A stretch of 64,000 nt of DNA, from the NCBI RefSeq assembly GCF_029227855.1, contig NZ_CP074356.1. One strand, 5' to 3'. The notes under the pieces were generated by a model. It was given only the letters and a program-made list of their open reading frames with translations. It did no database searches and was not told where the DNA came from. This document shows, one piece after another, positions 37,887-60,127 of this stretch. This DNA comes from Escherichia coli. Lineage in GTDB: Bacteria > Pseudomonadota > Gammaproteobacteria > Enterobacterales > Enterobacteriaceae. A program made the position numbers and the translations under genes. Every line of letters starts with the position of its first letter. Within the stretch, counting starts at the first letter, position 1.

Positions 37887-38018
37887 CATATCTCCCTTAT
37901 CTGGACCGATGGCCCACGATAATTTAGCAGAATGTTAACAAACTAAAATACACAAAACTACCAGAACCCCGTGGCAACCGGTGCCTGATGTTGACCGTCG
38001 GAACAGTCAACATCGCGA

Positions 38019-39329
38019 TTACGGTTTGAAGTCCAATGGCGCGTTTTTGAACACTTCATATACTGCCTGGCTTGGTGGTTTCGGGATCTTCGCAAGTTTA
38101 GCTGCTGCCAACGCAGCCTGACAAAGTGCGGGATCGCCACCTTCAGGTTTGATATCCAGTAACATACCATCGGGTGCCAGTTTTATGCGCAGCGTACAGG
38201 TTTTGCCTGCATAGGACGATGCGTCATAGAACTTACTTTCGATAGCAGATTTAATCTGCCCGGCATAGTTATTGATATCGGCCCCTGATGCGCCATTGTT
38301 TTTAGTATTACCACTCCCGGCAGGCGAAGCATTGTTCCCTTTCGCCCCTCCCCCCGTTTTCGGTGCATTCTTACCAGAGCTTAGCTCACCGAAAATATCA
38401 TCTGCCTCTGCGGCAGCTTTTGCTGCAGCGGCTTTTTCAGCTGCTGCTTTTGCAGCTGCTGCTTTTGCAGCTGCCGCTTTTTTGTCTGCGGCGGCTTTTT
38501 CTGCCGCTGCTTTCTTATCAGCTGCTGCCTTTTCAGCAGCTGCCTTTTCAGCAGCTGCCTTTTCAGCAGCCGCTTTTTCTGCTGCTTTTTTGTCGGCTGC
38601 AGCTTTCTCTGCTGCCACTTTCTTATCAGCTGCAGCCTTTTCAGCAGCCGCTTTCTTCTCAGCTTCTGCCTTGGCTTTTTCAGCAGCTTCAGTTGCCGCT
38701 TTCTTTCTTGCTTCAGCTGCAGCTGCTTCTGCCGCTTCCGCTTTCTTCTTCAGTGCCGCAGCGGCTGCCTCGGCTTTTTTCTGCGCTTCGGCTGCGGCTT
38801 TGGCGGCTTCTGCTTCTGCTTTTTTCTTCGCGTCTGCAGCCGCTTTCTTCGCAGCTTCTTCCGCAGCTTTAGCATCCGCTTCAGCCTTCGCTTTAGCATC
38901 TTCCGCCGCTTTCGCTGCCGCTTCTTCCGCTTGCTTCTGCTTTAACTCGGCCTGTTTTGCGGCTTCTTCAGCCTGCTTTTTCTGTTCCTGAGCAGCTAAC
39001 CGCTCTTTCTCAAGTTGCTTCAGGCGTTCCTGTTCAGCCGCTTGTTTCTCACGCAGTTCTTCAGCAGCCTGCTGTTCCTTCATCTTGCGCTGCTCATCAG
39101 AACGCTTCGCGCTTGATTCCTGGCTTTGCATGCGTTTGTACTGCTCAACTACCGCACCTGAATCAACCATGACAGCGTCGATGGATGAACCACCGCCGCC
39201 TCCGGCTGAAGCTTCTATATTCTCATCGAACGAACTCCAGATCAGCGCCGCAAATAAGATGACATGCAGCACTGCTGAAATAATTATCGCCCGCTTGAGC
39301 TTGTCGTTTTGTTCGGTTGCCTTTGACAC
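38019..39329 (-). CDS. tolA: Tol-Pal system protein TolA
   Basis: 436 aa ORF MSKATEQNDKLKRAIIISAVLHVILFAALIW... with a long Ala/Lys/Glu-rich helical domain II and a conserved C-terminal domain; matches TolA. Confidence 0.95.
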   Translation of the reverse strand: MSKATEQNDKLKRAIIISAVLHVILFAALIWSSFDENIEASAGGGGGSSIDAVMVDSGAVVEQYKRMQSQESSAKRSDEQRKMKEQQAAEELREKQAAEQERLKQLEKERLAAQEQKKQAEEAAKQAELKQKQAEEAAAKAAEDAKAKAEADAKAAEEAAKKAAADAKKKAEAEAAKAAAEAQKKAEAAAAALKKKAEAAEAAAAEARKKAATEAAEKAKAEAEKKAAAEKAAADKKVAAEKAAADKKAAEKAAAEKAAAEKAAAEKAAADKKAAAEKAAADKKAAAAKAAAAKAAAEKAAAAKAAAEADDIFGELSSGKNAPKTGGGAKGNNASPAGSGNTKNNGASGADINNYAGQIKSAIESKFYDASSYAGKTCTLRIKLAPDGMLLDIKPEGGDPALCQAALAAAKLAKIPKPPSQAVYEVFKNAPLDFKP

Positions 39330-42644: not shown

Positions 42645-44213
42645 TTAGCGTGCCGGCTGAGTAGTCGTGGAAGACTGCTCAAAGTGATAGCGACCGGTTT
42701 TCAGGCTGCTTGGGCCGAGGCGTGCAAACTTGAACATTAAGAACAATTCTGCCACCAGGAACAGGGTATACAGGCCGCAAATCAGCACCATTGAGAAGAT
42801 GAGATCGCCTGCGGTCAGTGACGAGTTCGCCACAGCTGTCGGCAGCACTTCACCGATAGCCCACGGTTGGCGGCCATATTCAGCCACAAACCAGCCCGCT
42901 TCTACAGCAATCCACGGCAGCGGAATACCGTACAGCGCGGCGCGCAGCAGCCATTTTTTCTCGCCAATGCGGTTGCGGATGACACTCCAGAAAGAGAGCG
43001 CGATGATTGCCAGCAGTAGGAAGCCACACGCCACCATGATACGGAACGCGAAGTACAGCGGCGCTACACGCGGAATGGAGTCTTTGGTTGCCTGTTGAAT
43101 CTGCGCTTCAGTCGCATCAGCCACGTTTGGCGTATAGCGTTTCAGCAGCAGACCGTAACCGAGGTCTTTCTTCATGCTATTGAACTGGTCACGAACCGCC
43201 TGGTCGGTAGAACCAGAACGCAGTTGCTCGAGCAGAGAGTACGCCTTCATCCCGTTACGAATGCGTTCTTCATGCTGCACCATCAGTTCTTTCAGGCCGA
43301 TAACTGGAGTATCCACGGAACGCGTTGCAATGATGCCCAGCGCGTAAGGGATCTGGATCGCAAATTTGTTCGTCTCCTCTTCCTGATCAGGAATGCCGAA
43401 CAGAGTAAAGGCAGCAGGCGCAGGTTGCGTTTCCCACTCGGCTTCAATAGCAGCCAGTTTGGTTTTCTGCACGTCGCCCATTTCGTAACCAGATTCATCA
43501 CCCAGAACAATAACAGACAGAACGGCAGCCATACCGAAGCTGGCAGCGATAGCAAAGGAGCGTTTAGCGAAGGCGAAGTCACGACCTTTCAGCATATACC
43601 ATGCGCTGATACCGAGGATGAACATCGCGCCAGTCACATAACCAGACGCTACAGTGTGAACGAATTTCACCTGAGCAACCGGGTTAAGCACCAGCTCGGA
43701 GAAGCTCACCATCTCCATACGCATAGTTTCAAAGTTGAAATCGGACGCGATTGGGTTTTGCATCCAGCCGTTCGCAACCAGAATCCACAGTGCGGACAGG
43801 TTTGAACCGAGCGCCACCAGCCAGGTGACACACATATGCTGAACTTTACCCAGACGATCCCAACCGAAGAAGAACAGACCTACAAAGGTGGATTCGAGGA
43901 AGAAGGCCATCAGACCTTCGATTGCCAGCGGCGCACCGAAGATATCCCCTACATAGTGGGAATAGTAAGACCAGTTAGTCCCGAACTGGAACTCCATGGT
44001 CAGACCGGTAGCCACACCCAGAGCGAAGTTGATACCAAACAACTTGCCCCAGAACTTGGTCATATCTTTATAAATCTGTTTGCCGGAAAGGACGTAGACC
44101 GTTTCCATAATGGCCAGCAGGAACGCCATACCGAGCGTCAGTGGCACAAAAAGGAAGTGGTACATCGCGGTCAAGGCAAACTGTAAGCGCGACAGTTCGA
44201 CTATATCTAACAT
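42645..44213 (-). CDS. cydA: Cytochrome bd-I ubiquinol oxidase subunit I (CydA)
   Basis: [41 protein letters not shown]... (start taken at the second Met of the ORF-track protein); matches CydA. Confidence 0.96.
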
Positions 44214-44550
44214 CATGACTCCTTGCTCATCGCATGAAGACTCCGAGAGTGAACCCCGTTAGAAAGGGTCACACGCATGCCCCAATACAAAATTATTTGC
44301 TCGCCTCTATCGTTGCCATTTCATCAAAAGAGGAAAAGACAATGATAAAAAAGTTACAAATATGTTAATGAATAAACCAAATTGATCCCGTAATTATATT
44401 ACGCCGCAAAATCCTTACAATAAACATGTTTTTATTGAGCAAATTTGCATTTTTCGACAGTGATCAATTTATAGCGAAATTGTCACGATCTCACCAATTT
44501 GATCTACGACAATTTATCGTGTTTTGCAGATTTTTTTCAAGAATTAAAAA

Positions 44551-44564
44551 TTGATTTATATCAA
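44551..44564. promoter_or_regulatory. FNR-type box (TTGAT-N4-ATCAA) in the cydAB upstream regulatory region
   Basis: Perfect match ttgatttatatcaa about 340 bp upstream of the cydA start, within a long AT-rich leader; cydAB is a known FNR/ArcA-controlled operon. Confidence 0.65.
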
Positions 44565-45018
44565 AACCAACCAAATATGTTAATTGTGTATAAACCATAG
44601 ATCATTGGTGATTTTATTGTTAATTTATTGTGAAATATTTATGCAACACAATTATTACAATGAAAAGGTATAGATAAAAAACCAGTGTTTTATTTAACAG
44701 AACCGCCTTATCCACTTTTTATAATACCAATTGATTAGATTAGCCAATTTGTTGCTATTTTACATAACATATTTTTATCAAAGTTAATTGATTGTTGCGT
44801 TTATGAGCACCGGCCGTAAGCCCGTTATGTTATTGTTTCATTAGTAATAATCACTTAAATGTATCGATGAAACAGGTATGACTTAGCGGGAGTGATTGTT
44901 TCTGAGTGAACAGAGACCACTTTCGCCTGATAAATGAAAAATGAGCGATTTTTGCAAGTTAGTTTTTCTATAGCCGAGTACGCTCAGCGCCTCGCTTGAT
45001 TACAATGAGGTTGCTGCT

Positions 45019-45963
45019 ATGAGTCCTGATAATATCAGTTCTGCTGTCAATCGCTTCTCAGGTTGGCCATCTAATGATCCTCTAAAAACAGATAAAGAAT
45101 CAATGACATCACCCATGACTGTGCAGGTAATAAAGATGATTGCCGCCATCCTTGACCCACATCGGATAGTCGTTGGAATCGATACACTTTATACAACGCA
45201 GCGCGAAACATTTACCTCAGAGAGTCAACAGCTCATTGAATCAGCATTGCAAACACTTCATGTGATGAATTTAAATAACCTGGAAACAAATCTCGATGAG
45301 GAAGGTCACTATCTGGCTTTTGGATATAACGTTGACACTCCTGACAGAATAACCGTTTCTGCTTATAATGAAAAAAAGCCTGGCTGCTATGGCCAATGTC
45401 TTTTAATACAGGATGACGAAACAGACTTATTTAACCTGATAAAAGTTAAAATTTTTGAAGCCAGGCATAATTATGTCGCTCAATTGATGAGCGATCCGGA
45501 ATTTATGTTCAAATTTAGTTATAGCGCTCAACAAAATAGATTAGAACCTCATCTTCTGGTTCCCACTTATTTCCCTCTAAAAACAAACGAACCGGTTACG
45601 CAAGAGGATGTACTGTTACTTTATCGTTTCTTTAAAATGGATGGTGATTTTAATATATTAACATCAGATGAATACATGAGTATCATGACACCTCTAATGA
45701 AGTGTGAGCGTAGCATCCACGACCACAACAGGTATGTGACGGGCAAAGATACCCTTCTTCTGGACTATCCTCCTTCTGGTAACCAGATATATTTCCATAT
45801 TTTTCCTGACGAATCAGCAACACTAGTCCTTTATTTTTCAAACAATGACATTGAATGTTTCGTCTTTGAAAGAGATATTCCGAGCCAGTATCGCTTTTTC
45901 AAAATGTTTACCAATCTGGCACTGGTTATTGATCAGTTAACCGATGCCAATCAAATACTTTAA
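45019..45963 (+). CDS. Hypothetical protein, 314 aa, AT-rich accessory gene; no family recognised
   Basis: A long open frame in DNA that is markedly AT-rich (where chance ORFs of this length are unlikely); polar Ser/Thr/Pro-rich N-terminus (MSPDNISSAVNRFSGWPSNDPLKTDKESMTSP), no signal peptide or transmembrane segment evident. Confidence 0.6.
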   Translation: MSPDNISSAVNRFSGWPSNDPLKTDKESMTSPMTVQVIKMIAAILDPHRIVVGIDTLYTTQRETFTSESQQLIESALQTLHVMNLNNLETNLDEEGHYLAFGYNVDTPDRITVSAYNEKKPGCYGQCLLIQDDETDLFNLIKVKIFEARHNYVAQLMSDPEFMFKFSYSAQQNRLEPHLLVPTYFPLKTNEPVTQEDVLLLYRFFKMDGDFNILTSDEYMSIMTPLMKCERSIHDHNRYVTGKDTLLLDYPPSGNQIYFHIFPDESATLVLYFSNNDIECFVFERDIPSQYRFFKMFTNLALVIDQLTDANQIL

Positions 45964-46043
45964 TTTTTATATATTCCCTGTGGCAAATATTGCTAAACAA
46001 TGCCCGGGGATTAATTTTTATTACTCACGGAAAGATTTAAATA

Positions 46044-46466
46044 ATGATCCCATCTCAAATCTCTTTCAACACCCTTCCTGTCAATGCAACATACGCTTCA
46101 GAGACAACAGTTGACACACAAAAATTCTCTGACATCCTCTACTCAGCGGGGTGTTCCCTAAAGGATCTGGCTTATTTGAGCAGATGTCTGGCATCAATAC
46201 ATCCGACTATCGCCAAAAACATTTATGAAACAGAAAATCTCAGCGATCAAAAATTACTACATATTGATTGCCGTAGTACAAATGAAATCAAGATAAATAT
46301 CTTTTTTGGTCGACAACGAGAAGGATTAATTGAAATTAGTTCTGACACAGTCATTTTTTCGATACTGTCTTCATTGATTGACTCCACCATTTCTAAATTT
46401 CAACACCAAAACCCCGTTAACGGTTCTGTAAATCCTGACCTATTGTATGAGGATTATACTGATTAA
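46044..46466 (+). CDS. Hypothetical protein, 140 aa, AT-rich accessory gene; no family recognised
   Basis: ORF 81 bp downstream of the previous gene on the same strand; predominantly acidic, Ser/Thr-rich N-terminus (MIPSQISFNTLPVNATYASETTVDTQKF). Confidence 0.5.
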   Translation: MIPSQISFNTLPVNATYASETTVDTQKFSDILYSAGCSLKDLAYLSRCLASIHPTIAKNIYETENLSDQKLLHIDCRSTNEIKINIFFGRQREGLIEISSDTVIFSILSSLIDSTISKFQHQNPVNGSVNPDLLYEDYTD

Positions 46467-47013
46467 ATCCCTCCTGTCGCGAAAAATGGCCTGCGTTATT
46501 GCCAGACGTAATAAAACTTTTGATTAACGTTTCTCGTACTGGTAGCACCCTCATGTACTTTTCTTTTTTACGAAAAATCAAAAGAGCTAACAAAGGTCAT
46601 AATTCGCATGAATCATTAATTATTTGTTATTTTCAACATTATTTTTACATTAAGCAGAGATGAATTGCAGTGAAATTCGACTTAACTTTTATGAAATGCA
46701 TTTACTCATGGCTAAAGCCACGTCACAAAAATGCAAATTAGAAGTTGATCACAATTATCTCAATACATCAAATCAAGTTAATTTTAAAAATTTAACATTC
46801 ATGACATCAGTTGACATAACACACTGAATTAAAATGAGAATTTGAAAACACACTTTAAACAATCATTTCCCGAAAGACATTTTGAAAATAGATCAATTGC
46901 AACATTACGGTCAGATAAAGACACTCCTGTGATATTAAACCTGTGCCGTTATGAACGGCCATAAATACGACGTGTGTAACTTATTTTACTCTCTGTCTTA
47001 CAAAGGATTACCC

Positions 47014-47463
47014 ATGAAGAAAGCAACACTTGTGATTGGCGTTATTGGCGCGGACTGCCATGCAGTAGGCAATAAAGTTCTGGACCGCGTTTTTAGCAAC
47101 CATGGCTTCAGAGTCATTAATCTGGGCGTAATGGTCAGCCAGGACGAATATATTGATGCTGCCATTGAAACTGGTGCTGACGCGATTGTCGTCTCCTCTA
47201 TCTATGGGCATGGCGATATCGACTGTCTGGACATGCGCGAACGCTGCATCGAGCGTGGACTGGGGGACATCCTGCTCTATGTGGGCGGTAACCTGGTGGT
47301 CGGAAAACATGACTTCGCTGACGTGGAAACCAAATTCAAAGAGATGGGATTTGATCGCGTCTTTGCCCCAAGTCATGACTTAGAAGATGTTTGTCAGCTG
47401 ATGGCCCACGATATCAACCAACGTCATGACGTTGATACTCGTATTCTTGAAGAGGCAATCTGA
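47014..47463 (+). CDS. Glutamate mutase S (sigma) component, B12-binding subunit (methylaspartate mutase small subunit)
   Basis: From the ATG at 47014 (AAGGAT ribosome-binding site): [62 protein letters not shown]...; the DxHxxG cobalamin-binding motif (DCHAVG) and strong similarity to clostridial GlmS/MutS as I remember it. The ORF-track upstream extension is rejected. Confidence 0.88.
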
Positions 47464-48851
47464 TGCAAATCGTCTCTGTCGATATTGGATCGACGTGGAC
47501 CAAAGCAGCCCTCTTCGCCCGGGAGGGGGACGCGTTAACGTTGGTTAACCACGTACTGACCCCAACCACCCCCCATCATCTGGCGAAGGGGTTTTTCTCC
47601 AGTCTGAACCTGGTGTTAAACGTAGATGATGCCCTCCCCCTGTTTAACAGCGGTGAGGTTGCATTGAAGTATTCCTCCTCTGCCAAAGGTGGGCTGGCGG
47701 TTGCCGCAATGGGATTGGTGCCTTCTATCACCCTGGAAACCGCGAAAGTAACCGCTCACTCTGCGGGGGCTAAAATTGCGCAATATTACGCCTACAAGCT
47801 GAACCGCCGTGATATCCAGGCACTGGAAGAAACGCAGCCCGATATTCTCTTGTTCACCGGCGGCACCGACGGCGGAGAAGAAAGCTACGGCCTGAATAAC
47901 GCCCGTGTGCTGGCAGAATCCAAACTCGACTGCGCCATTATTTATGCCGGAAACCGGGATATTCAGGACAAGGTGCAGGAGATCCTAGGGCATAAAGACC
48001 TGACCATCGTCGACAACGTTCTGCCCGATCTTGACCATCCGAACCCTTTAGCTGCACGCCAGGCTATCTGCGACATATTCCTTAAACGCATCGTTAAAGG
48101 GAAAGGGCTGGATGTCGTTGTTGATAAAACAGGCGAAGAACCAATGCCGACACCGTGGACAGTCTTTGAACTGGTTAAGGCAATCAGTAATGTCGATCAC
48201 AGCTGGAAAGAGTTCATGCTGATCGACATGGGCGGCGCAACCACCGATGTCTATTCCGCCTGTGCCAACACGCTCTCGCCCGACACCGTTTTACACGGCG
48301 TACCGGAACCCTTCGTGAAACGGACGGTGGAAGGCGATCTGGGAATGCGCGTCTCGGCAATGGTGGTTGGTGAAAGTGCGAAAGAGTTAGTCAATGTGAA
48401 TTTTGCTCAGCAACCCGCACAGCTGGACGCTTTTTATCATTACCTCCGTCATCTAGTCGCTCATCCCGACTACTTACCCGCGAATTCAGAAGAAAAATAT
48501 TTCGATACCGTCCTGGCCGGACTGTGTGTGGGTTATGCCACCGAAAGACATGCGGGCACCAAAAAAGAGGTCTGCACCTGCGTCGGCAATGTCGATTTAC
48601 AGATGGGACGTGACCTGACAACCGTGCGTAAAGTCGTCGGATCCGGCGGATGGCTCTCGCGTGCCAGTCAGTTCGATATGCATCACTGGTTGAAATACCG
48701 CAAGTTAAACGACGACGGTAAACGCATTCTCTTACCGACCGAATTTGAATATTACCGCGATTCCCGGGGGCTATTACCATTGCTGGCAAACGTCGCCAGA
48801 GTCGATCCGCTGGCCGCCGCGCGCACCAGTATTCAATGCTTAACCCTATAA
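47463..48851 (+). CDS. Glutamate mutase L component (MutL/GlmL-like accessory/reactivating protein)
   Basis: 462 aa [39 protein letters not shown]... (actin-like ATPase N-terminus); start overlaps the stop of the preceding gene (TGATG); position between the S and E subunits as in clostridial operons. Confidence 0.8.
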   Translation: MQIVSVDIGSTWTKAALFAREGDALTLVNHVLTPTTPHHLAKGFFSSLNLVLNVDDALPLFNSGEVALKYSSSAKGGLAVAAMGLVPSITLETAKVTAHSAGAKIAQYYAYKLNRRDIQALEETQPDILLFTGGTDGGEESYGLNNARVLAESKLDCAIIYAGNRDIQDKVQEILGHKDLTIVDNVLPDLDHPNPLAARQAICDIFLKRIVKGKGLDVVVDKTGEEPMPTPWTVFELVKAISNVDHSWKEFMLIDMGGATTDVYSACANTLSPDTVLHGVPEPFVKRTVEGDLGMRVSAMVVGESAKELVNVNFAQQPAQLDAFYHYLRHLVAHPDYLPANSEEKYFDTVLAGLCVGYATERHAGTKKEVCTCVGNVDLQMGRDLTTVRKVVGSGGWLSRASQFDMHHWLKYRKLNDDGKRILLPTEFEYYRDSRGLLPLLANVARVDPLAAARTSIQCLTL

Positions 48852-48869
48852 CAATTAAGGCTGCAATCA

Positions 48870-50315
48870 ATGGAACTTCGAAATAAGAAATTAACCCATG
48901 ACGAATTCATGACCGAGCGGCAACAGGTACTGAAAACCTGGGAAACCGGCAAGGATGTTGAAAACTTTGAAGATGGCGTTAAATACCAACAAACCATTCC
49001 TGAGCATAAACGCTTCTCTCTTGCGCTGTTGAAAGCAGACAAGGAAGGTAAAACCCTTAGCCAACCGCGCGCAGGTGTGGCGCTGATGGACGAACACATC
49101 GAACTACTGAAAACACTACAAGAAGAGTGCGATCTGCTGCCGAGCACTATCGATGCATATACCCGTCTGAATCGGTACGAAGAAGCGGCTGTAGGGATTA
49201 AAAAATCCATCGAAGCCGGAACCTCTAAACTGAACGGTTTGCCGGTAGTTAACCATGGCGTCGCAGCTTGCCGTCGCCTCACCGAAACCCTGCAAAAACC
49301 GCTACAGATCCGCCACGGCACGCCAGATGCGCGTCTGCTGGCTGAAATCTCGATGTCCAGCGGCTTTACCAGTTACGAAGGCGGCGGCATTTCCTACAAC
49401 ATTCCGTATGCCAAACGCGTAACGCTGGAAAAATCGATCCGCGACTGGCAGTACTGCGACCGTTTAATGGGGATGTATGAAGAACACGGGATCCGCATCA
49501 ACCGCGAACCGTTTGGCCCACTAACAGGTACGCTGATCCCGCCGTTTATCTCGCACTCTATCGCGATAATCGAAGGCTTGCTGGCGCTGGAACAGGGTGT
49601 GAAATCTATCACCGTTGGTTATGGACAGGTCGGCAGCCTGACGCAGGATGTTGCGGCGATCCAGTCTCTGCGTGAACTTGCACACGAATATTTTCAGAGC
49701 TATGGCTATACCGACTATGAATTAAGTACCGTGTTTCACCAGTGGATGGGCGGCTTTCCGGAAGACGAATCGAAAGCGTTCGCTATTATCTCCTGGGGCG
49801 CAGCCGTCGCGGGGATGTCTGGTGCCACCAAAGTCATCACCAAAAGCCCGCACGAAGCCTGGGGTATCCCGACTGCCGCTGCCAACATTCAGGGGCTGAA
49901 AGCCTCCCGCCAGATGCTCAACATGGTCAACGAGCAGAAATTCCCGCCGTGCCCTGCGGTTGAACTGGAAATTGAACTGATTAAGAGCGAGGTTCGCGCG
50001 GTACTGAATAAAGTGTTCGAACTGGGTAATGGTGATATTGCGCGCGGTACGGTGCTGGCATTTGAAGCGGGCGTACTGGATGTGCCGTTTGCGCCAGCCG
50101 CCTGCAACGCGGGCAAAATTCTTCCGGTCCGTGACAACACCGGCGCGATACGCGTACTGGAAGCCGGAGCCGTTCCATTGCCAAAAGATATTCTCGACCT
50201 CCACCACGATTACGTTGCTGAACGCGCACGCTTTGAAGGACGCCAACCGACATTCCAGATGGTTGTAGATGACATCAATGCTGTATCCCACAGTAAATTA
50301 ATAGGAAGACCATAA
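48870..50315 (+). CDS. Glutamate mutase E (epsilon) catalytic subunit (methylaspartate mutase large subunit)
   Basis: 481 aa ORF MELRNKKLTHDEFMTERQQVLKTWETGKDVENFEDGVKYQQTIPEHKRFSLALLKADKEGKTLSQPRAGVALMDEHIELLKTLQ... matching remembered GlmE/MutE. Confidence 0.88.
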   Translation: MELRNKKLTHDEFMTERQQVLKTWETGKDVENFEDGVKYQQTIPEHKRFSLALLKADKEGKTLSQPRAGVALMDEHIELLKTLQEECDLLPSTIDAYTRLNRYEEAAVGIKKSIEAGTSKLNGLPVVNHGVAACRRLTETLQKPLQIRHGTPDARLLAEISMSSGFTSYEGGGISYNIPYAKRVTLEKSIRDWQYCDRLMGMYEEHGIRINREPFGPLTGTLIPPFISHSIAIIEGLLALEQGVKSITVGYGQVGSLTQDVAAIQSLRELAHEYFQSYGYTDYELSTVFHQWMGGFPEDESKAFAIISWGAAVAGMSGATKVITKSPHEAWGIPTAAANIQGLKASRQMLNMVNEQKFPPCPAVELEIELIKSEVRAVLNKVFELGNGDIARGTVLAFEAGVLDVPFAPAACNAGKILPVRDNTGAIRVLEAGAVPLPKDILDLHHDYVAERARFEGRQPTFQMVVDDINAVSHSKLIGRP

Positions 50316-51556
50316 TGAAAATAAAACAGGCCCTTTTTACCGCTGGCTACTCCTCATTCTATTTCGATGACCAGCAGGCGATAAAAAACGGAGCGGGTCA
50401 CGACGGTTTTTTTTATACCGGGGAGCCAGTAACACAGGGGTTTAACGCCGTACGTCAGGCCGGGGAGTGCGTATCGGTACAGTTGATTCTGGAAAACGGC
50501 GCGGTCGCCGTAGGTGACTGTGCTGCCGTACAGTATTCCGGGGCAGGCGGTCGCGATCCACTGTTCCTCGCGGAGCACTTTATTCCGTTCCTCAACGACC
50601 ATATCAAGCCATTACTGGTAGGCCGCGATGTGGATGTTTTCCTGCCGAATGCCCGTTTCTTCGACAAATTGCGTATTGACGGCAACTTGCTGCATACCGC
50701 CGTGCGCTACGGATTATCACAGGCTCTGCTTGATGCTACCGCGCTGGCAACCGGCCGTCTGAAAACTGAAGTGATCTGTGATGAATGGCAGTTGCCACGC
50801 GTGGCGGAATCCATTCCATTATTTGGTCAGAGCGGGGACGATCGATATATCGCCGTCGATAAGATGATCCTTAAGGGCATCGACGTGCTGCCCCATGCGC
50901 TGATTAATAACGTCGAAGAGAAGCTGGGCTTTAAAGGTGAAAAACTGCGCGAATATGTCCGCTGGTTGTCGGATCGCATTCTGAGCAAGCGCACCAGCGC
51001 ACGCTACCACCCAATCCTGCACATCGATGTATACGGCACTATCGGTCTGATCTTCGATATGGATCCGCTTCGCTGTGCGCAATACATCGCCAGCCTGGAA
51101 AAAGAAGCGCAAGGCCTGCCGCTCTACATTGAAGGGCCGGTCGATGCCGGTAACAAGCCCGATCAAATTCGCCTGCTGACCGCGATTACCAAAGAGCTGA
51201 CGCGCCTCGGTTCCGGCGTGAAACTAGTGGCCGATGAATGGTGTAACACCTACCAGGATATTGTTGATTTCACAGATGCCGCCAGTTGCCACATGGTGCA
51301 AATCAAAACCCCGGATCTGGGCAGTATTCACAACATCGTCGATGCAGTTCTTTATTGCAACAGCCACAGCATGGAAGCGTACCAGGGCGGCACCTGCAAT
51401 GAAACTGATGTCAGTGCCCGCACCTGTGTCCACGTCGCCCTTGCCGCTCGCCCCATGCGTATGCTGGTAAAACCAGGGATGGGCTTTGACGAAGGCCTCG
51501 ATATCGTCTTCAACGAAATGAATCGTACTATCGCGCTGTTGCAGGCTAAGGATTAA
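50315..51556 (+). CDS. 3-methylaspartate ammonia-lyase (methylaspartase; enolase superfamily)
   Basis: 413 aa ORF MKIKQALFTAGYSSFYFDDQQAIKNGAGHDGFFYTGEPVTQGFNAVRQAGECVSVQLILENG... with conserved blocks (CAAVQYSGAGGRDPLFLA, QSGDDRY, LPHALINNVEEKLG, HMVQIKTPDLG, AKPGMG) shared with the clostridial enzyme; start overlaps the preceding stop. Confidence 0.9.
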   Translation: MKIKQALFTAGYSSFYFDDQQAIKNGAGHDGFFYTGEPVTQGFNAVRQAGECVSVQLILENGAVAVGDCAAVQYSGAGGRDPLFLAEHFIPFLNDHIKPLLVGRDVDVFLPNARFFDKLRIDGNLLHTAVRYGLSQALLDATALATGRLKTEVICDEWQLPRVAESIPLFGQSGDDRYIAVDKMILKGIDVLPHALINNVEEKLGFKGEKLREYVRWLSDRILSKRTSARYHPILHIDVYGTIGLIFDMDPLRCAQYIASLEKEAQGLPLYIEGPVDAGNKPDQIRLLTAITKELTRLGSGVKLVADEWCNTYQDIVDFTDAASCHMVQIKTPDLGSIHNIVDAVLYCNSHSMEAYQGGTCNETDVSARTCVHVALAARPMRMLVKPGMGFDEGLDIVFNEMNRTIALLQAKD

Positions 51557-51559
51557 CAA

Positions 51560-52930
51560 ATGGCTCGTTCTTTTAAAGTCTTATCGCCAACGGCAATCCT
51601 CGGGTATGGATTCCCGGAAGAGAGCTTCCGCAAAGCGATGGCAGAATCGCCCGATCTGATCGCCGTTGATGCAGGCTCTTCCGATCCTGGCCCCCACTAC
51701 CTCGGGGCGGGCAAACCGTTTACCGATCGCGCAGGGGTCAAGCGCGATCTGCGCTATATGATCACCGCAGGCGTGCAAAATAATATACCGGTGGTGATCG
51801 GAACGGCCGGCGGTTCTGGTGCCGCTCCACACCTGGAGTGGTGCCGAGAAATAATTCATGAGATTGCCCGGGAAGAGCACCTCTCGTTCTCGATGGCGTT
51901 GATCCCGGCAGACGTTGACAAAGCCATCGTCCACCAGGCGCTGGATAACGGCAAAATCACGGCGCTGGAGTTTGTCCCGCCGTTAACCCACGACGCGATT
52001 GACGAAAGTACGTATATCGTTGCGCAAATGGGCATCGAACCCTTCCAGCGGGCGCTGAAAGAAGGCGCGCAAGTGGTGCCGGGCGGGCGCGCTTACGACC
52101 CGGCCTGCTTTGCTGCGCTTCCGATCATGCAAGGCTTTGATGAAGGTCTGGCGCTTCATTGTGGGAAAATCCTTGAATGCGCGGCAATCGCCGCAACGCC
52201 CGGCTCAGGCTCTGACTGTGCGATGGGCATCATTGATGACAACGGCTTTACGCTGAAGACATTTAATCCGAAGCGTAAATTTACCGAAACGTCAGCAGCT
52301 GCACACACACTGTATGAGAAATCCGATCCCTACTTCCTGCCTGGACCTGGCGGCGTGTTGAACCTGAAAGGCTGCACATTTAAAGCGGTCAATGACAGCG
52401 AAGTGTACGTCAGCGGTTCTAAGCATGAAGAAACGCCGTATTCCCTGAAACTGGAAGGTGCGCGACGGGTGGGCTTCCGCTGTCTGACCATCGCAGGAAC
52501 GCGCGACCCGATCATGATCGCCGGGATCGATAAAATCATCGATGAAGTCAAAACCAGCGTTTCGCGTAACCTGTCGCTCGACGATGACAGCATTCACATC
52601 AATTTCCACCTGTACGGCAAAAACGGGGTGATGGGCGACCATGAACCGATGCAAACTGCCGGGCATGAGCTGGGGATTGTCCTAGATGTAGTTGCGCCGA
52701 CCCAGGAAATTGCCAACAGCGTTTGCTCGCTGGTGCGCTCTACTATGCTGCACTACGGCTATGAAAACCGCATCGCTACCGCAGGCAACCTGGCGTTCCC
52801 GTTCTCCCCTTCTGATATCCAGGGCGGGCCGGTATACGAATTTTCCATATATCACCTGATTGAAGCCAACGACGCTCTGCGTTTTGATTTCCATATTGAA
52901 CAGGTGACGCCAGAAGGAGTTCAGGCATGA
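51560..52930 (+). CDS. Conserved hypothetical protein, 456 aa (possibly DUF1446/AtuA-like; assignment from memory, unverified)
   Basis: ORF MARSFKVLSPTAILGYGFPEESFRKAMAESPDLIAVDAGSSDPGPHYLGAGKPF... begins 4 bp after the methylaspartase stop; no catalytic motif I can name. Confidence 0.6.
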   Translation: MARSFKVLSPTAILGYGFPEESFRKAMAESPDLIAVDAGSSDPGPHYLGAGKPFTDRAGVKRDLRYMITAGVQNNIPVVIGTAGGSGAAPHLEWCREIIHEIAREEHLSFSMALIPADVDKAIVHQALDNGKITALEFVPPLTHDAIDESTYIVAQMGIEPFQRALKEGAQVVPGGRAYDPACFAALPIMQGFDEGLALHCGKILECAAIAATPGSGSDCAMGIIDDNGFTLKTFNPKRKFTETSAAAHTLYEKSDPYFLPGPGGVLNLKGCTFKAVNDSEVYVSGSKHEETPYSLKLEGARRVGFRCLTIAGTRDPIMIAGIDKIIDEVKTSVSRNLSLDDDSIHINFHLYGKNGVMGDHEPMQTAGHELGIVLDVVAPTQEIANSVCSLVRSTMLHYGYENRIATAGNLAFPFSPSDIQGGPVYEFSIYHLIEANDALRFDFHIEQVTPEGVQA

Positions 52931-53244
52931 AACAGTCAATTGTCTCACTGGCGCAAGTCATTCGTTCGAAAAATGCCGGACCTTACGAACTGGTTTTAGA
53001 TATTTTATTTAAAACGAAAGAAAACTATGAGCGAGTTAAATCATCAGGGCAATTAACCCCAGAACTGATTGCGCGCTTATATCATGTTGAACCTGACTTT
53101 ATTCACCGTATTGTCTGGTTTGATCCTTCTAACGCAGTAAAAATCGTCATGCCACGAGATATTATCTCCGGGAATGTAGGTGACAATGATGTCTATGGTG
53201 CACAGCAACATGCACCTTTATTAAATATGAGTTTCGATTTGTAA
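52927..53244 (+). CDS. Conserved hypothetical protein, 105 aa (possibly DUF4387-like partner of the preceding gene; unverified)
   Basis: ORF MKQSIVSLAQVIRSKNAGPYELVLDILFKTKENYERVKSSGQLTPELIARLYH...; start codon overlaps the stop of the upstream gene (ATGA), implying translational coupling. Confidence 0.55.
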   Translation: MKQSIVSLAQVIRSKNAGPYELVLDILFKTKENYERVKSSGQLTPELIARLYHVEPDFIHRIVWFDPSNAVKIVMPRDIISGNVGDNDVYGAQQHAPLLNMSFDL

Positions 53245-53404
53245 AAATCCGAATACTTTTAGCCAACTGACATCCCGTCACTTATTGCAGTTCAACACTT
53301 CAGCTATTTGTAAGGTTGTAATAGCAGGTAGATGCCTGAATCTCTATTCAGGCATCTACTTCTCCTGATTCTGATTTATCGCCGTGCACCTGATGGAGGA
53401 AAAA

Positions 53405-54685
53405 ATGAAGAAAATAAGTTTAACCACGATGATTCTTTTGGCGCTGGTACTTGGAATGATTATCGGCGTAGTGCTCAATAACACTGCTTCACCGGAAACC
53501 GCAAAACTCTATGCGCAAGAAATATCGATATTCACGACGATTTTCTTACGACTGATAAAAATGATTATCGCTCCGTTAGTGGTCTCTACCCTGGTGGTAG
53601 GTATAGCTAAAATGGGCGATGCCAAAGCCCTTGGTCGTATTTTTTCTAAAACACTCTTTTTATTTATTTGCGCCTCATTGCTGTCAATTGCCTTAGGCTT
53701 GATAACAGTAAATTTCTTCATGCCAGGCACAGGAATTAATTTTGTTGCACACGGAGCCGAAACCACCGGAGTGGTCGCGTCAGAACCCTTTACGCTAAAA
53801 GTATTTATTTCGCATGCTTTCCCCACCAGCATTGTCGATGCCATGGCGCACAATGAAATTTTGCAAATCGTGGTGTTCTCAATTTTCCTCGGCTGTAGCC
53901 TGACGGCGATTGGCGAGAAAGGCAGCGCCATCGTTCACGCCTTAGATTCGCTGGCACATGCCATGTTAAAGCTCACTGGCTACGTCATGCTCTTCGCTCC
54001 CCTGACCGTATTCGCTGCTATTTCAGCATTGATTGCTGAACGAGGACTGGCAGTTATGGTGAGCGCCGGGATCTTTATGGGTGAATTTTATTTCACCATG
54101 TTATTACTTTGGGTGCTGCTTATCGGTCTGGCCATCGTTTATGTTGGCCCCTGCATCAGACGCCTGACCCGCGCCCTTTCGGAACCCGCCCTGCTGGCAT
54201 TTACCACATCCAGTTCTGAAGCGGCTTTTCCGGGAACGCTTGAAAAACTGGAGCAATTTGGCGTTTCCCCAAAAATTGCCAGTTTTGTCTTACCCATTGG
54301 CTACTCATTTAATCTCGTTGGATCAATGGCCTACTGCTCCTTCGCCACAGTTTTCATCGCCCAGGCCTGCAATATCCATTTATCCATCGGTGAGCAAATC
54401 ACCATGCTGTTGATCCTGATGTTGACCTCGAAAGGAATGGCTGGCGTACCACGCGCCTCAATGGTGGTTATCGCCGCCACGCTCAACCAGTTCAATATTC
54501 CGGAAGCGGGGCTGATCTTGCTGATGGGCGTTGATCCGTTCCTTGATATGGGGCGTTCAGCGACAAACGTCATGAGCAACGCAATGGGCGCTGCGATGGT
54601 GAGTCGGTGGGAAGGCGAACATTTCGGCGAGGGCTGTCGGGGTAAAGCATTAAAACCCAATGAATCGAACGTTGCTCTGCCCTGA
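53405..54685 (+). CDS. Dicarboxylate/amino acid:cation symporter (DAACS family; GltP/DctA-like)
   Basis: From the ATG at 53405 (GGAGGA ribosome-binding site): MKKISLTTMILLALVLGMIIGVVLN... multi-pass membrane protein with DAACS-type layout; substrate not inferable from sequence alone. Confidence 0.8.
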   Translation: MKKISLTTMILLALVLGMIIGVVLNNTASPETAKLYAQEISIFTTIFLRLIKMIIAPLVVSTLVVGIAKMGDAKALGRIFSKTLFLFICASLLSIALGLITVNFFMPGTGINFVAHGAETTGVVASEPFTLKVFISHAFPTSIVDAMAHNEILQIVVFSIFLGCSLTAIGEKGSAIVHALDSLAHAMLKLTGYVMLFAPLTVFAAISALIAERGLAVMVSAGIFMGEFYFTMLLLWVLLIGLAIVYVGPCIRRLTRALSEPALLAFTTSSSEAAFPGTLEKLEQFGVSPKIASFVLPIGYSFNLVGSMAYCSFATVFIAQACNIHLSIGEQITMLLILMLTSKGMAGVPRASMVVIAATLNQFNIPEAGLILLMGVDPFLDMGRSATNVMSNAMGAAMVSRWEGEHFGEGCRGKALKPNESNVALP

Positions 54686-54792
54686 GGGGGATCTTAAGCA
54701 ATCAGAAGCCAATGACTACGCATTTTTATAAGCCGGATCATGAAGTTAGACGGCAATTAAGTAAAACTAACGTTTAAGGTGAAAAGTGAAAT

Positions 54793-56445
54793 ATGTCCAA
54801 ACCATTTATCTGGCAAGAACCGTTTCTACAAAATAAAGACGGTACAGAATATACATTAATTAGCGATCAACATATTACAGTAACGGAATTAGACGGCGAA
54901 GAAGTAATAAAAATCGCTCCTGAAGCATTAACGCTGCTTGCCCGGCAGGCATTTTATGAAGCCTCTTTTTTCTTACGTTCCGCTCATTTGCAACAGGTCG
55001 CCAGCATTCTTAACGATCCGCAGGCCAGTAGTAATGATAAATACGTTGCGTTGCAGTTATTACGTAATGCTGAAGTCTCAGCAAAAGGGGTATTACCCAA
55101 CTGTCAGGATACCGGCACCGCAACTATTGTTGCCAGTAAAGGGCAACAGATATGGACGGGAGGTAACGACGCTGAAGCCTTAAGCAAAGGCATTTACACC
55201 ACTTTTCAGGAAAATAATCTGCGCTTTTCACAAAATGCGCCACTGGATATGTTTACCGAAGTCAATACGCAAACCAATCTCCCGGCGCAGATTGATATCA
55301 GCGCCGTCGCTGGTGATGAGTACCATTTTCTCTGTATTAATAAAGGGGGCGGCTCTGCCAATAAAGCCGCGCTTTATCAGGAAACCAAATCCCTATTGCA
55401 ACCAGAAAAACTGACCGCATTTTTAATCGAAAAAATGAAATCGCTGGGCACCGCTGCCTGCCCGCCTTACCACATCGCCTTTGTCGTCGGAGGACTTTCA
55501 GCCGATCAAACCTTAAAAGTTGCCAAGCTGGCCTCAACGAAATATTACGACAATTTGCCCACCAGCGGAAACGAGCAAGGACAAGCATTCCGTGATATTG
55601 AGCTGGAAAAAGTATTGCTCGAGGCCAGTCAGCAATTTGGTATTGGTGCGCAATTTGGGGGTAAATATTTCGCTCATGATATTCGCGTCATTCGTCTGCC
55701 GCGTCACGGTGGCTCTTGCCCGATAGCTATGGCGCTCTCCTGTTCTGCGGATCGCAATATCAAAGCAAAAATTAACAAGCACGGTATCTGGCTGGAAAAA
55801 CTCGAACACAATCCGGGGCAATATATTCCAGCCTCACTGCGGGAAGAAAATCACGCGCAACATGTACAGCTGGATCTAAACCGTCCGTTGCGTGACGTGA
55901 TGCAGGATCTCGCCAGATTACCGGTAGGCACCCGCGTGTCGTTAAGTGGTCCCATCGTAGTGGCGCGCGATATCGCCCACGCCAAAATAAAAGCGCGGCT
56001 GGATAGCGGCGAACCGATGCCGGATTACCTGAAGCATCATATTGTCTATTACGCTGGCCCGGCGAAAACACCGGAGAACATGGCCTGCGGTTCACTGGGT
56101 CCAACCACGGGCGGTCGAATGGACGGTTATGTCGATACCTTCCAGGCGGTTGGCGGCAGTCTGGTGATGTTATCGAAAGGTCACCGCAGCCAGCAGGTCA
56201 CCGATGCCTGTCACAAACATGGCGGCTTCAATCTGGGAAGTATTGGCGGTGCAGCTGCGTTACTGGCGCAAGAATATGTCAAAAGTCTGCGTTGCCTGGA
56301 ATACCCGGAGCTGGGTATGGAAGCGGTGTGGATGATGGAAGTGGAAAATCTGCCCGCATTCATCCTGGTAGATGATAAAGGCAATAATTTCTTTAGTCAG
56401 TTTGAGCAGCAACACCGCTGCGCCAGTTGCCCTGCGGGACATTAA
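54793..56445 (+). CDS. fumD: Class I (Fe-S) fumarate hydratase paralogue; probable mesaconase/fumarase
   Basis: 550 aa [65 protein letters not shown]... collinear with remembered FumA/FumB (e.g. [41 protein letters not shown] blocks). The symbol is from my recollection of a described O157:H7 paralogue. Confidence 0.85.
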
Positions 56446-56454
56446 GGAAAATGA

Positions 56455-57057
56455 ATGGAAGCGCGAATTTCAACTGAACGGCATGTGCAGCGCCAGCAGA
56501 AATTGAAGGAACAGGTCGATACGCGCATCGCGGCGGCGATAGAGAAAAAAGGGATTTTGATTGTTTTCACCGGCAATGGCAAAGGGAAATCCACTGCCGC
56601 GTTTGGTACTGTGACGCGCGCGGTGGGTCATGGCAAAACGGTGGGGGTTGCGCAGTACATCAAGGGGCAATGGGACAACGGCGAATACAACCTTCTCCAG
56701 CCGCTGGGGGTTGAGTTTCATATTATGGGAACCGGTTTTACCTGGGAGACACAGAACCGGCAAGCGGATATCGACGCGGCGAAAGAGGTCTGGTCGGAAA
56801 GCAAACGGATGCTGGCTGACAAGCGTTACGACTTAGTGGTGCTTGATGAGCTGACCTATATGCTGGCTTACCATTATCTGGATACCGAAGAAGTGATCGC
56901 TTCTCTGCAAAACCGCCCGGCACAACAAAGTGTCATTGTCACCGGACGCGGTTGCCACAGTCAGATATTAAAAATGGCGGATACGGTCAGCGAAATCCGC
57001 CCCGTCAAACATGCTTTTGATAACGGCATTCAGGCGCAGCCGGGTATCGACTGGTAA
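56455..57057 (+). CDS. Cob(I)alamin adenosyltransferase paralogue (CobA/BtuR family)
   Basis: 200 aa ORF with P-loop GNGKGKSTAAFG and blocks shared with E. coli BtuR (RAVGHGK, TGFTWETQNR, LDELTYM, GRGCH, ADTVSE, RPVKHAF). Confidence 0.85.
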   Translation: MEARISTERHVQRQQKLKEQVDTRIAAAIEKKGILIVFTGNGKGKSTAAFGTVTRAVGHGKTVGVAQYIKGQWDNGEYNLLQPLGVEFHIMGTGFTWETQNRQADIDAAKEVWSESKRMLADKRYDLVVLDELTYMLAYHYLDTEEVIASLQNRPAQQSVIVTGRGCHSQILKMADTVSEIRPVKHAFDNGIQAQPGIDW

Positions 57058-57090
57058 TAACTGCGCCTGGCATCCCGCCAGGCGCAGGTT

Positions 57091-57996
57091 TTACATCTCC
57101 TGCGGTACAACCGATTTCGCCAGCAACCATTCACGAAATTGCTGCAAGTGCGGTGAGTCAGACTTCTCTTCCTGCCACGTCATAATAAAACGATTACCGG
57201 TACGAATAGGCACATCACAGGGGATCACCATATCGCCACTATCCAAATCATGTTGAATAGCGAAACGTGGTAACAGCGCCACGCCGAGATTAGAGCGCAC
57301 GGCGGCAATCAGCATTGAAAGCAAATCGAAACGTGGTCCGTTGTTGACCAGTGGACTGCTAACGCCAGATAAAGCAAACCACTCTTCCCAGCCAGTAATA
57401 CGGGTGCTTTGATGCAGAAGTGGTAACTCAGTAAGCAGTTCTGCCACTGACAGTTTTTGATCGGACATTGCAAGCAAACTGCCGCTGCATACCGGCAAAA
57501 TCTCCTCATCAAAGAGATATTCTACTTCCGCCCAGGGCGCGCAAAAATTTTCGCGCATAATGACAGCATCGTACTCCCGATTAAGAAAATCGCCGTTATT
57601 AGCTAAAGAGTGAATATTAACAATAATATCGGGATGTAACTTTGTGAATTCATGTAAATTTGGGATTAACCAGTGGGTACTAAACGTAGGATTCACGGCA
57701 AGTTCAATAACCTGAACCGTAGGCTGCCAGGTCATAATAGTATTGGTATCGCGTTCCAGCTTATTTAATGTTTCTTTTACTATCCCCAGGTAATACTTCC
57801 CTGCATCATTAAGAAAAATACGTTTTTTAGAGTGTGAAAATAACGGAGTATGTAAAAATTCCTCCAGCGCACTCACTTGTCTGAATACAGCACTTTGGGT
57901 TAACGCTAACTCCTCTGCCGCTCTGGTATAACTTTCATAACGTGCGACGACCTCAAAAGTCACCAGCAGCTCCGTTTTAGGTATTTTTCCTCGCAT
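57091..57996 (-). CDS. LysR-family transcriptional regulator
   Basis: Minus ORF with N-terminal helix-turn-helix (LVTFEVVARYESYTRAAEELALTQSAVFRQVSALEEFL) and a LysR substrate-binding domain; start assigned to the Met of MRGKIPKTELL (the ORF track begins 10 codons upstream); start uncertain. Confidence 0.8.
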   Translation of the reverse strand: MRGKIPKTELLVTFEVVARYESYTRAAEELALTQSAVFRQVSALEEFLHTPLFSHSKKRIFLNDAGKYYLGIVKETLNKLERDTNTIMTWQPTVQVIELAVNPTFSTHWLIPNLHEFTKLHPDIIVNIHSLANNGDFLNREYDAVIMRENFCAPWAEVEYLFDEEILPVCSGSLLAMSDQKLSVAELLTELPLLHQSTRITGWEEWFALSGVSSPLVNNGPRFDLLSMLIAAVRSNLGVALLPRFAIQHDLDSGDMVIPCDVPIRTGNRFIMTWQEEKSDSPHLQQFREWLLAKSVVPQEM

Positions 57997-58209
57997 AATT
58001 CCGTCCGTGAAAAAATAACAATTCAAAAATTATTTTATAAAAAACAGTAGCACTAATGAATATCATAATTCAAATAAACAAACCAGTCAGCTATATGTCT
58101 AACCAGGAAAATAAAGTGACAATAATCCTAAAACAGGAATTTCACCTCAGTTATCCGCATGCAATACTTTAAAGCTATTATTGCAAGAATATTATTCATA
58201 TACATGAAT

Positions 58210-58334
58210 ATACTCTAAATAAGTCAAGTTGCAGGAAGGGAACAAATAATGAATTTCCAGAAGCTTACATAAGTAAGTGACCTGAGTGAGCGAACATCGA
58301 TGCAGCACATGCAACTTGAATTATGACAAGTATA
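58210..58334. repeat. Diverged ERIC (IRU) element
   Basis: tatactctaaataagtcaagttgcaggaagg ... agcttacataagtaagtgacctgagtgagcgaac ... gcagcacatgcaacttgaattatgacaagtata aligns along its length with the ERIC copy at 11653-11779, with substitutions. Confidence 0.8.
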
Positions 58335-58585
58335 CAATGATAAATTTATATACCCTATGTTATATATTATCTATGTCCGGTTAAATTGAATGAGTCATGG
58401 CCTTAAAAGACTTCACAAAAGATAATTCCTCTTTAACAATAAGCCAGATTTACCACTTGTAAAACTTGCTATCGCCACATACACTACGCGCGTTTTCTTT
58501 CCCTTTTGCTGGCTGCTGACCGGAAAGACAAAATTACCCTCGCAATACAGGGGGTTGTTTAACGTCTATATTTCAGGACAGCGTT

Positions 58586-59983: not shown

Positions 59984-60127
59984 CTGAAATGATAAATGGC
60001 CTGCGGTTCTCACGCAGGTCAAATCTGGTATCTGCGTAAGCTAACAAACTTGTTTATCAACAATCTCAGGCCATCCGAAGATGGCCTGAAATTATTGCCC
60101 CCCTTAGATACACTTTTAGCGCAATAA

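Follow-up and report, generated by a model that had tools for sequence, protein, structure and literature searches.

A probable orphan gene pair restricted to Escherichia in AT-rich DNA between the cydAB control region and the glutamate-mutase cluster of Escherichia coli

ORFans in the AT-rich, H-NS-silenced islets of Enterobacteriaceae are characterized by a guanine-plus-cytosine (GC) content about 15 points below the genome average, the lack of a homologue outside the genus, a ratio of nonsynonymous to synonymous substitution rates (dN/dS, or omega) that is elevated but below 1, near-zero expression in the laboratory, sporadic decay, and the label 'hypothetical protein'. Two neighboring open reading frames of Escherichia coli, ORF1 and ORF2, are alike in these respects, near-zero expression being probable in their case. 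They lie within a 64,000-nucleotide stretch of contig NZ_CP074356.1 (RefSeq assembly GCF_029227855.1), which is called the window here. With a probability of roughly 0.6, the two are best read as genus-restricted orphan genes in an AT-rich islet of ~2.2 kb, situated between the cydAB control region and the glutamate-mutase/methylaspartate (glm) cluster. Unlike the islets in which such ORFans are described, this one appears to be old, being common to E. albertii, is fixed beside the control region of a core respiratory operon, and carries no recognizable mobile element.

The pair also bears likenesses to systems of other kinds. In class I chaperone/effector pairs of type III secretion systems (T3SS), such as CesT-Tir and SycE-YopE, the chaperone is small and acidic, as is the ORF2 product, and its gene adjoins a larger one on the same strand; the polar N-termini of both ORF products, rich in Ser, Thr and Asn, add to the resemblance. 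Type II toxin-antitoxin loci likewise consist of two same-strand genes, the second of which is small. The E. coli O157:H7 glutamate-mutase/methylaspartate (mesaconate) cluster, glmS-glmL-glmE-MAL-...-fumD (Kronen & Berg 2015, PMC4682846), is contiguous with the ORFs, lies on the same strand, and occurs in an equal number of E. coli genomes.

The two ORFs and their spacers occupy the following positions of the window:

45019-45963, plus strand: ORF1, 314 amino acids (aa), ATG start, 36.3 kDa, isoelectric point (pI) 4.69, soluble; RefSeq WP_001305591.1, 'hypothetical protein'.
46044-46466, plus strand: ORF2, 140 aa, ATG start, 15.7 kDa, pI 4.78, soluble; RefSeq WP_275877313.1, 'hypothetical protein'.
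45964-46043, plus strand: spacer between ORF1 and ORF2, 80 nt, AT-rich (GC 0.30).
46467-47013, plus strand: spacer 5' of glmS, 547 bp, AT-rich (GC 0.32).

A preliminary description of this locus, made from the sequence alone, had reported two same-strand ORFs of 314 and 140 aa at a distance of 81 bp. The positions, sizes and strand agree with the ORF calls and with RefSeq, whose coordinates for both ORFs are identical to those calls, but the gap measures 80 nt.

Judged from substitution patterns, both ORFs are, with good confidence, genuine protein-coding genes under relaxed but significant purifying selection (omega ~0.4). Compared with its E. albertii allele, ORF1 retains 65% aa identity at dS 0.53 and dN 0.21 (dN/dS 0.41, Fisher p=7e-8), with zero indels and zero stops over 314 codons; by our own base-composition estimate, the chance of a 314-codon open frame in 38% GC DNA is ~(1-0.06)^314, or ~1e-9. 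The comparison with the most divergent E. coli allele gives an omega of 0.34 (p=4e-5) for ORF1 and 0.40 (p=8e-3) for ORF2; for the core of ORF2 and its E. albertii counterpart, the value is 0.42 (p=0.005). Within E. coli, dN/dS ranges over 0.34-0.79 for ORF1 and 0.09-0.40 for ORF2; the estimates taken as signs of selection on the frame span 0.34-0.47 for ORF1 and 0.09-0.42 for ORF2, and dN is significantly smaller than dS in every informative comparison (p 7e-8 to 8e-3). For the same genome pair, the neighbors have omega values of 0.01 (cydAB) and 0.02-0.08 (glmSLE), and the dS of ORF1 (0.53) falls between those of cydAB (0.18-0.25) and the glm genes (0.62-0.78). In addition, when 60 genomes spread evenly over the 1135 carriers were sampled for the integrity of ORF1, 57 matched over exactly 945 bp; of the other three, one alignment ends 2 nt before the query does, another shows a net loss of 2 bp, and in the third an insertion sequence cuts the gene. 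An RNA or DNA element embedded in the ORF2 core was considered and rejected, as this core is 82-88% identical to E. albertii, not above the best parts of ORF1.

Good confidence can also be placed in the view that, as far as sequence searches reach, ORF1 and ORF2 are orphans restricted to Escherichia, with no detectable relative or family. NCBIfam and PADLOC gave zero matches for either ORF, PHROGs gave a single chance-level match for ORF2 (E=0.076), and Pfam gave nothing below E=0.14 (best values 0.14-0.46, at chance level). When ORF1 was compared by phmmer with 1.84 billion cluster representatives, the only matches were pieces of ORF1 itself. Word-indexed searches of 5.8 billion proteins, made with single sequences and an ORF2 profile, yielded Escherichia sequences only, all unnamed or 'hypothetical protein'; for ORF2, the search for relatives among proteins at this scale consisted of two such word-indexed searches. 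Two 82-aa matches to ORF2 that appeared distant (P0046 and P0047) were dismissed as frameshift artefacts of error-rich assemblies. In a scan of one genome per GTDB species, relatives of ORF1 were found in E. albertii and Escherichia sp. MOD1-EC7003 only, plus two metagenome-assembled genomes. The latter, labelled Collinsella and Citrobacter, carry E. coli ORF1 sequence at 99-100% identity and are mis-binned or contaminated. A tblastn search through 72,556 plasmid and 50,697 phage records revealed no genuine plasmid or phage copy; the 'plasmid' matches (PLSDB) trace back to mislabelled chromosomal records that carry this locus, of which two measure 4.9 Mb and one, from E. coli, 0.73 Mb. As to conservation, proposed earlier as a check on the pair, genes and neighborhood are kept in 1135 E. 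coli genomes and in several E. albertii strains, with relatives only in Escherichia.

Structure was equally uninformative about kinship. A profile search (hmmsearch) of the sequences in PDB gave only matches at E>1. AlphaFold2, run on each ORF as the preliminary description had suggested for structure prediction, produced a mean confidence score (pLDDT) of 35.5 for ORF1 from its single sequence and 37.6 for ORF2 from a 7-sequence alignment, with no usable fold in either case. Foldseek found no counterpart of the ORF2 model in PDB at E<=0.001 (TM<=0.28), a result treated as meaningless because the model itself is unusable. The predicted helix/beta-meander/helix patterns raised the idea of paralogy between ORF2 and part of ORF1, or of an internal repeat within ORF1; both were ruled out by BLASTP (E=2.2), by hhalign (probability 0.95%), and by Smith-Waterman scores against 2000 shuffles (z=0.9, -0.7 and 1.35).

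The earlier statement that neither protein has a recognizable motif, signal peptide or transmembrane segment holds. There are no family matches, the largest Kyte-Doolittle 19-residue windows are 1.25 and 1.52, below those of a transmembrane segment, and no basic N-region typical of a signal peptide occurs in ORF1 or ORF2; both proteins are mildly hydrophilic. As no catalytic motif or cofactor signature is present, the products would more probably bind macromolecules than act as enzymes, but confidence in any specific biochemical role is low. The acidity ascribed to the small protein is real (ORF2 pI 4.78), but it is not confined to it (ORF1 pI 4.69).

The ORFs do occupy the most AT-rich DNA of the window, as had been claimed. 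The 1-kb bins at 44-47 kb have GC values of 0.363, 0.377 and 0.342, the window minimum, and the next lowest bin stands at 0.410; over 44.2-47.0 kb, GC is 0.30-0.38 versus ~0.52 elsewhere in the window. ORF1 has a GC of 0.38 and a GC at third codon positions (GC3) of 0.35, and ORF2 has 0.37 and 0.34, respectively, against GC3 values of 0.62 for cydA and 0.51-0.59 for glmS/L/E. The non-coding flanks measure 802 bp on the cydA side (GC 0.33) and 547 bp on the glmS side, which agrees with the AT-rich flanks of 0.5-0.8 kb given earlier. The larger flank, however, is for the most part not island DNA, and two features are distinguished in it:

44217-44855, minus strand: cydAB upstream control region, belonging to cydA and not to the orphan-gene islet.
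44937-45018, plus strand: ORF1-proximal upstream segment, putative promoter, 5' untranslated region (5'UTR) and ribosome-binding site, with GAGG 8 nt before the ATG.

A stretch of ~370-640 bp out of the 802 bp is common to E. coli strains without the ORFs. At least its first ~246-368 nt are matched by 5425 of the 5426 complete E. coli genomes; most have 368 nt at ~80% identity, and some have 638 nt at ~91% without carrying the ORFs. A five-way alignment covering the window, E. albertii, an Escherichia sp., a strain of the K-12 type and one whose slot holds a tetratricopeptide repeat (TPR) gene shows conservation over ~370 nt upstream of cydA, and the identity of the cydAB upstream region to E. 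albertii is 88-100%. The region also contains a perfect FNR palindrome, TTGATTTATATCAA, at 44551-44564, the sole perfect one in the window. The conservation in strains without the ORFs, together with this palindrome, identifies the stretch as regulatory DNA of cydAB; on these sequence criteria, the cydAB control region makes up the greater part of the 0.8-kb "non-coding" sequence, and DNA specific to the ORF module starts at ~44.86-44.9 kb.

Independently of the ORFs, this control region is itself variable. Over its first ~368 nt (44217-44584), the haplotype of the window and the K-12-type majority are ~80% identical, and 3732 E. coli genomes fall within the 80-90% identity band for that segment. 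CydA itself does not differ between the two (WP_000884361.1). Deeply diverged haplotypes of the cydAB control region therefore exist. The K-12-type FNR palindrome differs in its spacer: TTGATAAATATCAA.

The segment just 5' of ORF1 is probably its promoter and 5'UTR. Identity to E. albertii is 93% in the 60-nt bin 44937-44996 and 88% in the bin 44997-45056, against 65-67% for the bins immediately 5' of 44937 and a mean of ~77% for ORF1. On the other side of the pair, the part of the glmS-side spacer near ORF2 is poorly conserved and shows a 115-bp indel relative to E. albertii, and patches within 46617-47013 are 83-92% conserved and are probably the control region of the glm operon. No terminator-like site was found in the 80-nt spacer between the ORFs, promoter and terminator scans gave counts not above those of shuffles, and an Rfam scan of 44000-47200 at E<=1 gave zero RNA family matches.

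With regard to distribution, 1135 of the 5426 complete genomes of E. coli have the pair, always on the chromosome and always at this locus, and the glm genes are found in 1135 of 5426 as well. Carriers include O157:H7, O145, ST69, IAI39 and the enteropathogenic E. coli (EPEC) strain E2348/69. The arrangement cydA-ORF1-ORF2-glmS-glmL-glmE also occurs in several E. albertii strains (L023-L025), which implies that the block predates the split of E. coli and E. albertii or was exchanged as a block. The presence of ORF1 but not the glm cluster, at first taken to be typical of E. albertii, proved to be strain-specific, as other strains carry the full ORF1-ORF2-glm arrangement. The best-supported reading of these comparisons is thus an old, vertically inherited block made up of the ORF pair and glm, rather than a mobile module. 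The preliminary description had suggested that the pair may be an independent, horizontally acquired module, and the view of a module moving on its own does not stand in the face of the equal genome counts, the synteny in E. albertii, and the lack of plasmid and phage copies.

The two ORFs have not fared equally within this block. In E. albertii L023, ORF2 has a stop after codon 35, and in L003 it is nearly gone; a frameshift affects it in E. coli UTME-7, and Shigella dysenteriae 1617 has a truncated copy. ORF2 is degraded next to an intact ORF1 in E. albertii L003 and L023-25 and in E. coli UTME-7, and loss of ORF1 alone was not seen. Because ORF1 is intact in lineages with a decayed ORF2, ORF1 would be the main functional unit and ORF2 a dispensable accessory. 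The pair can also outlast its metabolic neighbor: in the E2348/69-derived strain EPEC1 (L022 5001-6895), ORF1, ORF2 and glmS are kept and the rest of the glm cluster has been removed next to ISEc13, and in E. albertii L003 and L017, ORF1 adjoins cydA, with an unrelated 258-aa protein and sucD beyond. In the same EPEC1 strain mngA is partial, so that intact ORF1 and ORF2 stand beside a dead metabolic island.

H-NS acts on the cydAB promoter region. In view of this role at the adjoining promoters and of the AT-rich base composition, the islet is proposed to be old foreign DNA that is held transcriptionally silent, probably by H-NS-type binding to AT-rich DNA. Expression would then occur only under a particular condition, starting from the conserved segment just 5' of ORF1. 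Taken together, there is good confidence that ORF1 and ORF2 are a real pair of orphan genes, specific to Escherichia, assignable to no known family and presumably silenced.

Several observations weigh against functional genes. No transcript or protein evidence for ORF1 or ORF2 was found. In the strand-specific RNA-seq of strain EDL933 (Landstorfer et al. 2014, PMC4048457, Table S4), four hypothetical coding sequences (CDSs) lie between glmS (Z0895) and cydA (Z0900), and these, Z0896-Z0899, reach 0-12 reads per kilobase per million mapped reads (RPKM) in all 11 conditions versus 2-212 for cydA, at low sequencing depth. The Z-tags of EDL933 are not matched one-to-one to ORF1 and ORF2, and the near-silence is that of the CDSs of the interval; whichever two of them correspond to the ORFs would be close to silent in this RNA-seq, a check on expression that had been named earlier. 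The glm genes are likewise near-silent in this data set (PMC4048457). There is no entry under these tags in one O157 proteome supplement, whose identifier scheme is unclear, nor in two Ribo-seq supplements and a bovine-gut transcriptome. The literature texts searched contain no mention of genes under ECs0765-0767 or Z0897-Z0899, the sole match to Z0898 being an unrelated cancer paper. Moreover, an omega of ~0.4 is high for a functional bacterial gene, and products that are poorly ordered or have no function would fit with the lack of a confident AlphaFold fold. A frameshift disrupts ORF1 in the type strain of E. albertii, frameshifted 160-aa variants of ORF2 circulate in E. coli, and both ORFs are broken by enterobacterial repetitive intergenic consensus (ERIC) insertions in Escherichia sp. 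MOD1-EC7003, where ERIC elements interrupt ORF1 and replace the 5' two-thirds of ORF2.

These points lend themselves to a different interpretation, in which ORF1 and ORF2 are functionless relics of an ancient acquisition that persist in E. coli because the block is young or because they hitch-hike with the glm cluster and the cydAB control region. This interpretation is improbable but has to be regarded as a serious minority view. It accounts for the near-zero RNA-seq signal in 11 conditions, for an omega five to forty times that of the neighbors, for the lack of a confident fold in either protein, and for pseudogenization that occurred independently in the E. albertii type strain, E. albertii ORF2, MOD1-EC7003, UTME-7 ORF2 and Shigella dysenteriae ORF2. 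What it does not account for is that dN remains significantly below dS in every informative comparison, that ORF1 has come through a divergence of dS 0.53 without an indel or stop over 314 codons in AT-rich DNA prone to stop codons, that 57 of the 60 sampled E. coli carriers have the full 945 bp, with length-changing disruption in two only, and that the segment just 5' of ORF1 is more conserved than its surroundings. The preliminary description had held that missing expression, or frameshifts in close relatives, would indicate decaying ORFs; such signs exist in part outside E. coli, but they are outweighed by dN/dS below 1 and by retention of the frame.

Apart from this question, the decayed alleles have features of their own. 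The recurrent 160-aa allele of ORF2 (P0009, P0010 and P0014) arises from a frameshift near codon 128 that replaces the acidic C-terminal tail, and is carried by at least 13 contigs, one of them a 4.7-Mb chromosome. The elements inserted in the ORFs of MOD1-EC7003 (L018 8350-8470 and 9090-9215) are ERIC, or intergenic repeat unit (IRU), elements containing the ERIC1R primer sequence GTAAGCTCCTGGGGATTCAC, and they show the mobility of ERIC into coding sequence.

Another possibility, also unlikely, is that the ORFs are accessory or regulatory genes of the glutamate-fermentation (methylaspartate) cluster, encoding, for instance, a sensor, chaperone or regulator. The equal carrier counts (1135 and 1135 of 5426 E. 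coli genomes), the location of the ORFs on the same strand directly upstream of glmS, and the same arrangement in E. albertii would all be expected of such genes. The base composition of the ORFs is nevertheless distinct from that of the cluster, with GC3 values of 0.34-0.35 versus 0.51-0.59 for the glm genes, and a spacer of 547 bp, poorly conserved in its ORF2-side half, separates them from glmS. The glutamate-mutase cluster also occurs in Klebsiella, Citrobacter, Enterobacter, Salmonella, Yersinia and Morganella (PMC4682846), but no counterpart of ORF1 or ORF2 was found in other genera that carry it. In addition, the cluster has its own LysR regulator, and in two lineages the ORFs were retained after the cluster had been deleted (both ORFs in that of E2348/69, ORF1 in E. 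albertii L003). On the strength of the differing GC3, the 547-bp separation and this survival in EPEC1 and E. albertii L003, the earlier statement that the pair is not part of the metabolic operon can be maintained.

A role of the pair as T3SS substrates of the locus of enterocyte effacement (LEE) or of E. coli type III secretion system 2 (ETT2), either as an effector with its chaperone or as two effectors, has some points in its favor: the DNA is AT-rich, as is that of many nle genes, the N-termini are, as judged by eye, rich in Ser, Thr, Asn, Ile and Pro, ORF2 starts with MIPSQISFNTLPVNATYAS and has no charged residue in its first 19 positions, its product is small and acidic like class I chaperones, and carriers include the LEE-positive O157:H7, O145, E2348/69 and E. 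albertii. This role is still very unlikely. No effector or chaperone family is matched in Pfam or NCBIfam, and the larger protein is acidic too. The neighbors are cydA and glmS, with no T3SS locus, prophage or exchangeable effector locus nearby. The pair is also found in extraintestinal D/F-type strains such as ST69 and IAI39, which we take to be LEE-negative. ORF2 decays independently of ORF1, and the N-terminal resemblance is one seen by eye only, with a structure model that is unusable. The preliminary description had compared the pair to effector/chaperone or toxin/immunity pairs; this comparison finds zero support in PADLOC, Pfam and NCBIfam, and the loss of ORF2 next to an intact ORF1 argues against ORF2 as an essential antitoxin, immunity protein or chaperone.

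A bolder version, for which the chances are similarly slim, is that ORF1, alone or together with ORF2, is the first member of a protein family with a new fold and would be an ancestral Escherichia substrate of type III secretion (LEE or ETT2) or a factor directed at the host or at competitors, silenced by H-NS and induced only in the gut. Such a factor would have escaped notice for want of homologues and because its gene is not in a prophage or pathogenicity island.

Least probable of all is a toxin-antitoxin, toxin-immunity or anti-phage defense pair, which is suggested by two adjacent same-strand genes of unequal size without assigned function in AT-rich DNA, but which is opposed by zero PADLOC matches and nothing meaningful in Pfam, NCBIfam and PHROGs (no toxin or antitoxin domain), by an 80-nt spacer without overlap or tight coupling where type II systems have coupled translation, by two acidic proteins in which no DNA-binding or nuclease motif was recognized, by the loss of ORF2, the putative 'antitoxin', alone in several lineages (several E. 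albertii contigs and UTME-7, with ORF1 intact), by a single-copy, fixed position on the chromosome, no further copy having turned up on plasmids, in phages or at a second site, and by the lack of a secretion signal or polymorphic-toxin architecture.

The reading of the pair as silenced, Escherichia-specific orphan genes thus remains preferred. Lacking any detectable relative, fold or function, and hardly expressed in the laboratory as far as the RNA-seq of the interval shows, the ORFs look like ordinary genomic dark matter rather than a recognizable effector or toxin module, and they add a new uncharacterized example of a familiar kind, namely genus-specific orphan genes in AT-rich DNA whose silencing is deduced from their setting. 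The result is mainly a clean negative, in that the effector/toxin speculation is removed and the "island edge" is mostly reassigned to the cydAB control region. The pair is nonetheless present in about a fifth of complete E. coli genomes, yet has no relative, predicted fold or recorded function. If functional, the ORFs would represent one or two new protein families specific to Escherichia, and a tractable example of old AT-rich orphan genes kept beside a core respiratory promoter.

The wider surroundings can be described from strain JNEC-KY178 (NZ_AP045174.1), to which 44217-46960 is 100% identical and whose RefSeq annotation supplied the gene order. The minus strand carries pnuC-nadA-tRNAs-cpoB-pal-tolBARQ-ybgC-ybgE-cydX-cydB-cydA. 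On the plus strand, cydA is followed by the two hypothetical proteins and then by glmS-glmL-glmE-methylaspartate ammonia-lyase-AtuA-DUF4387-symporter-class I fumarase-cobO, and beyond cobO lie a LysR regulator, an RtcB-family gene and mngB-mngA-mngR-sucD.

The interval between sucD and cydA (44217-62761; also L003, L019, L020, L022 and L023) is hypervariable, with four or more alternative sets of genes. K-12-type strains have a 75-aa hypothetical CDS and mngBAR in it, strain A26 has a TPR protein only, some E. albertii have ORF1 and a 258-aa outer-membrane-like protein, and the window has ORF1-ORF2, the glm cluster, LysR, RtcB and mngBAR. The RtcB-family (RNA ligase) gene, at 58586-59983, is the only gene in the space from the glm-island LysR regulator to mngB, in relatively AT-rich surroundings (GC 0.42-0.46 at 57-59 kb) and with no rtcA/rtcR partner visible in the annotation. 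On the far side of cydAB, a strong AT-skew of -0.456 in the 1-kb bin 38001-39000 coincides with tolA, which has its repetitive Ala/Lys/Glu-rich domain on the minus strand, and the TolA of the window is a 431-aa variant (WP_471724212.1).

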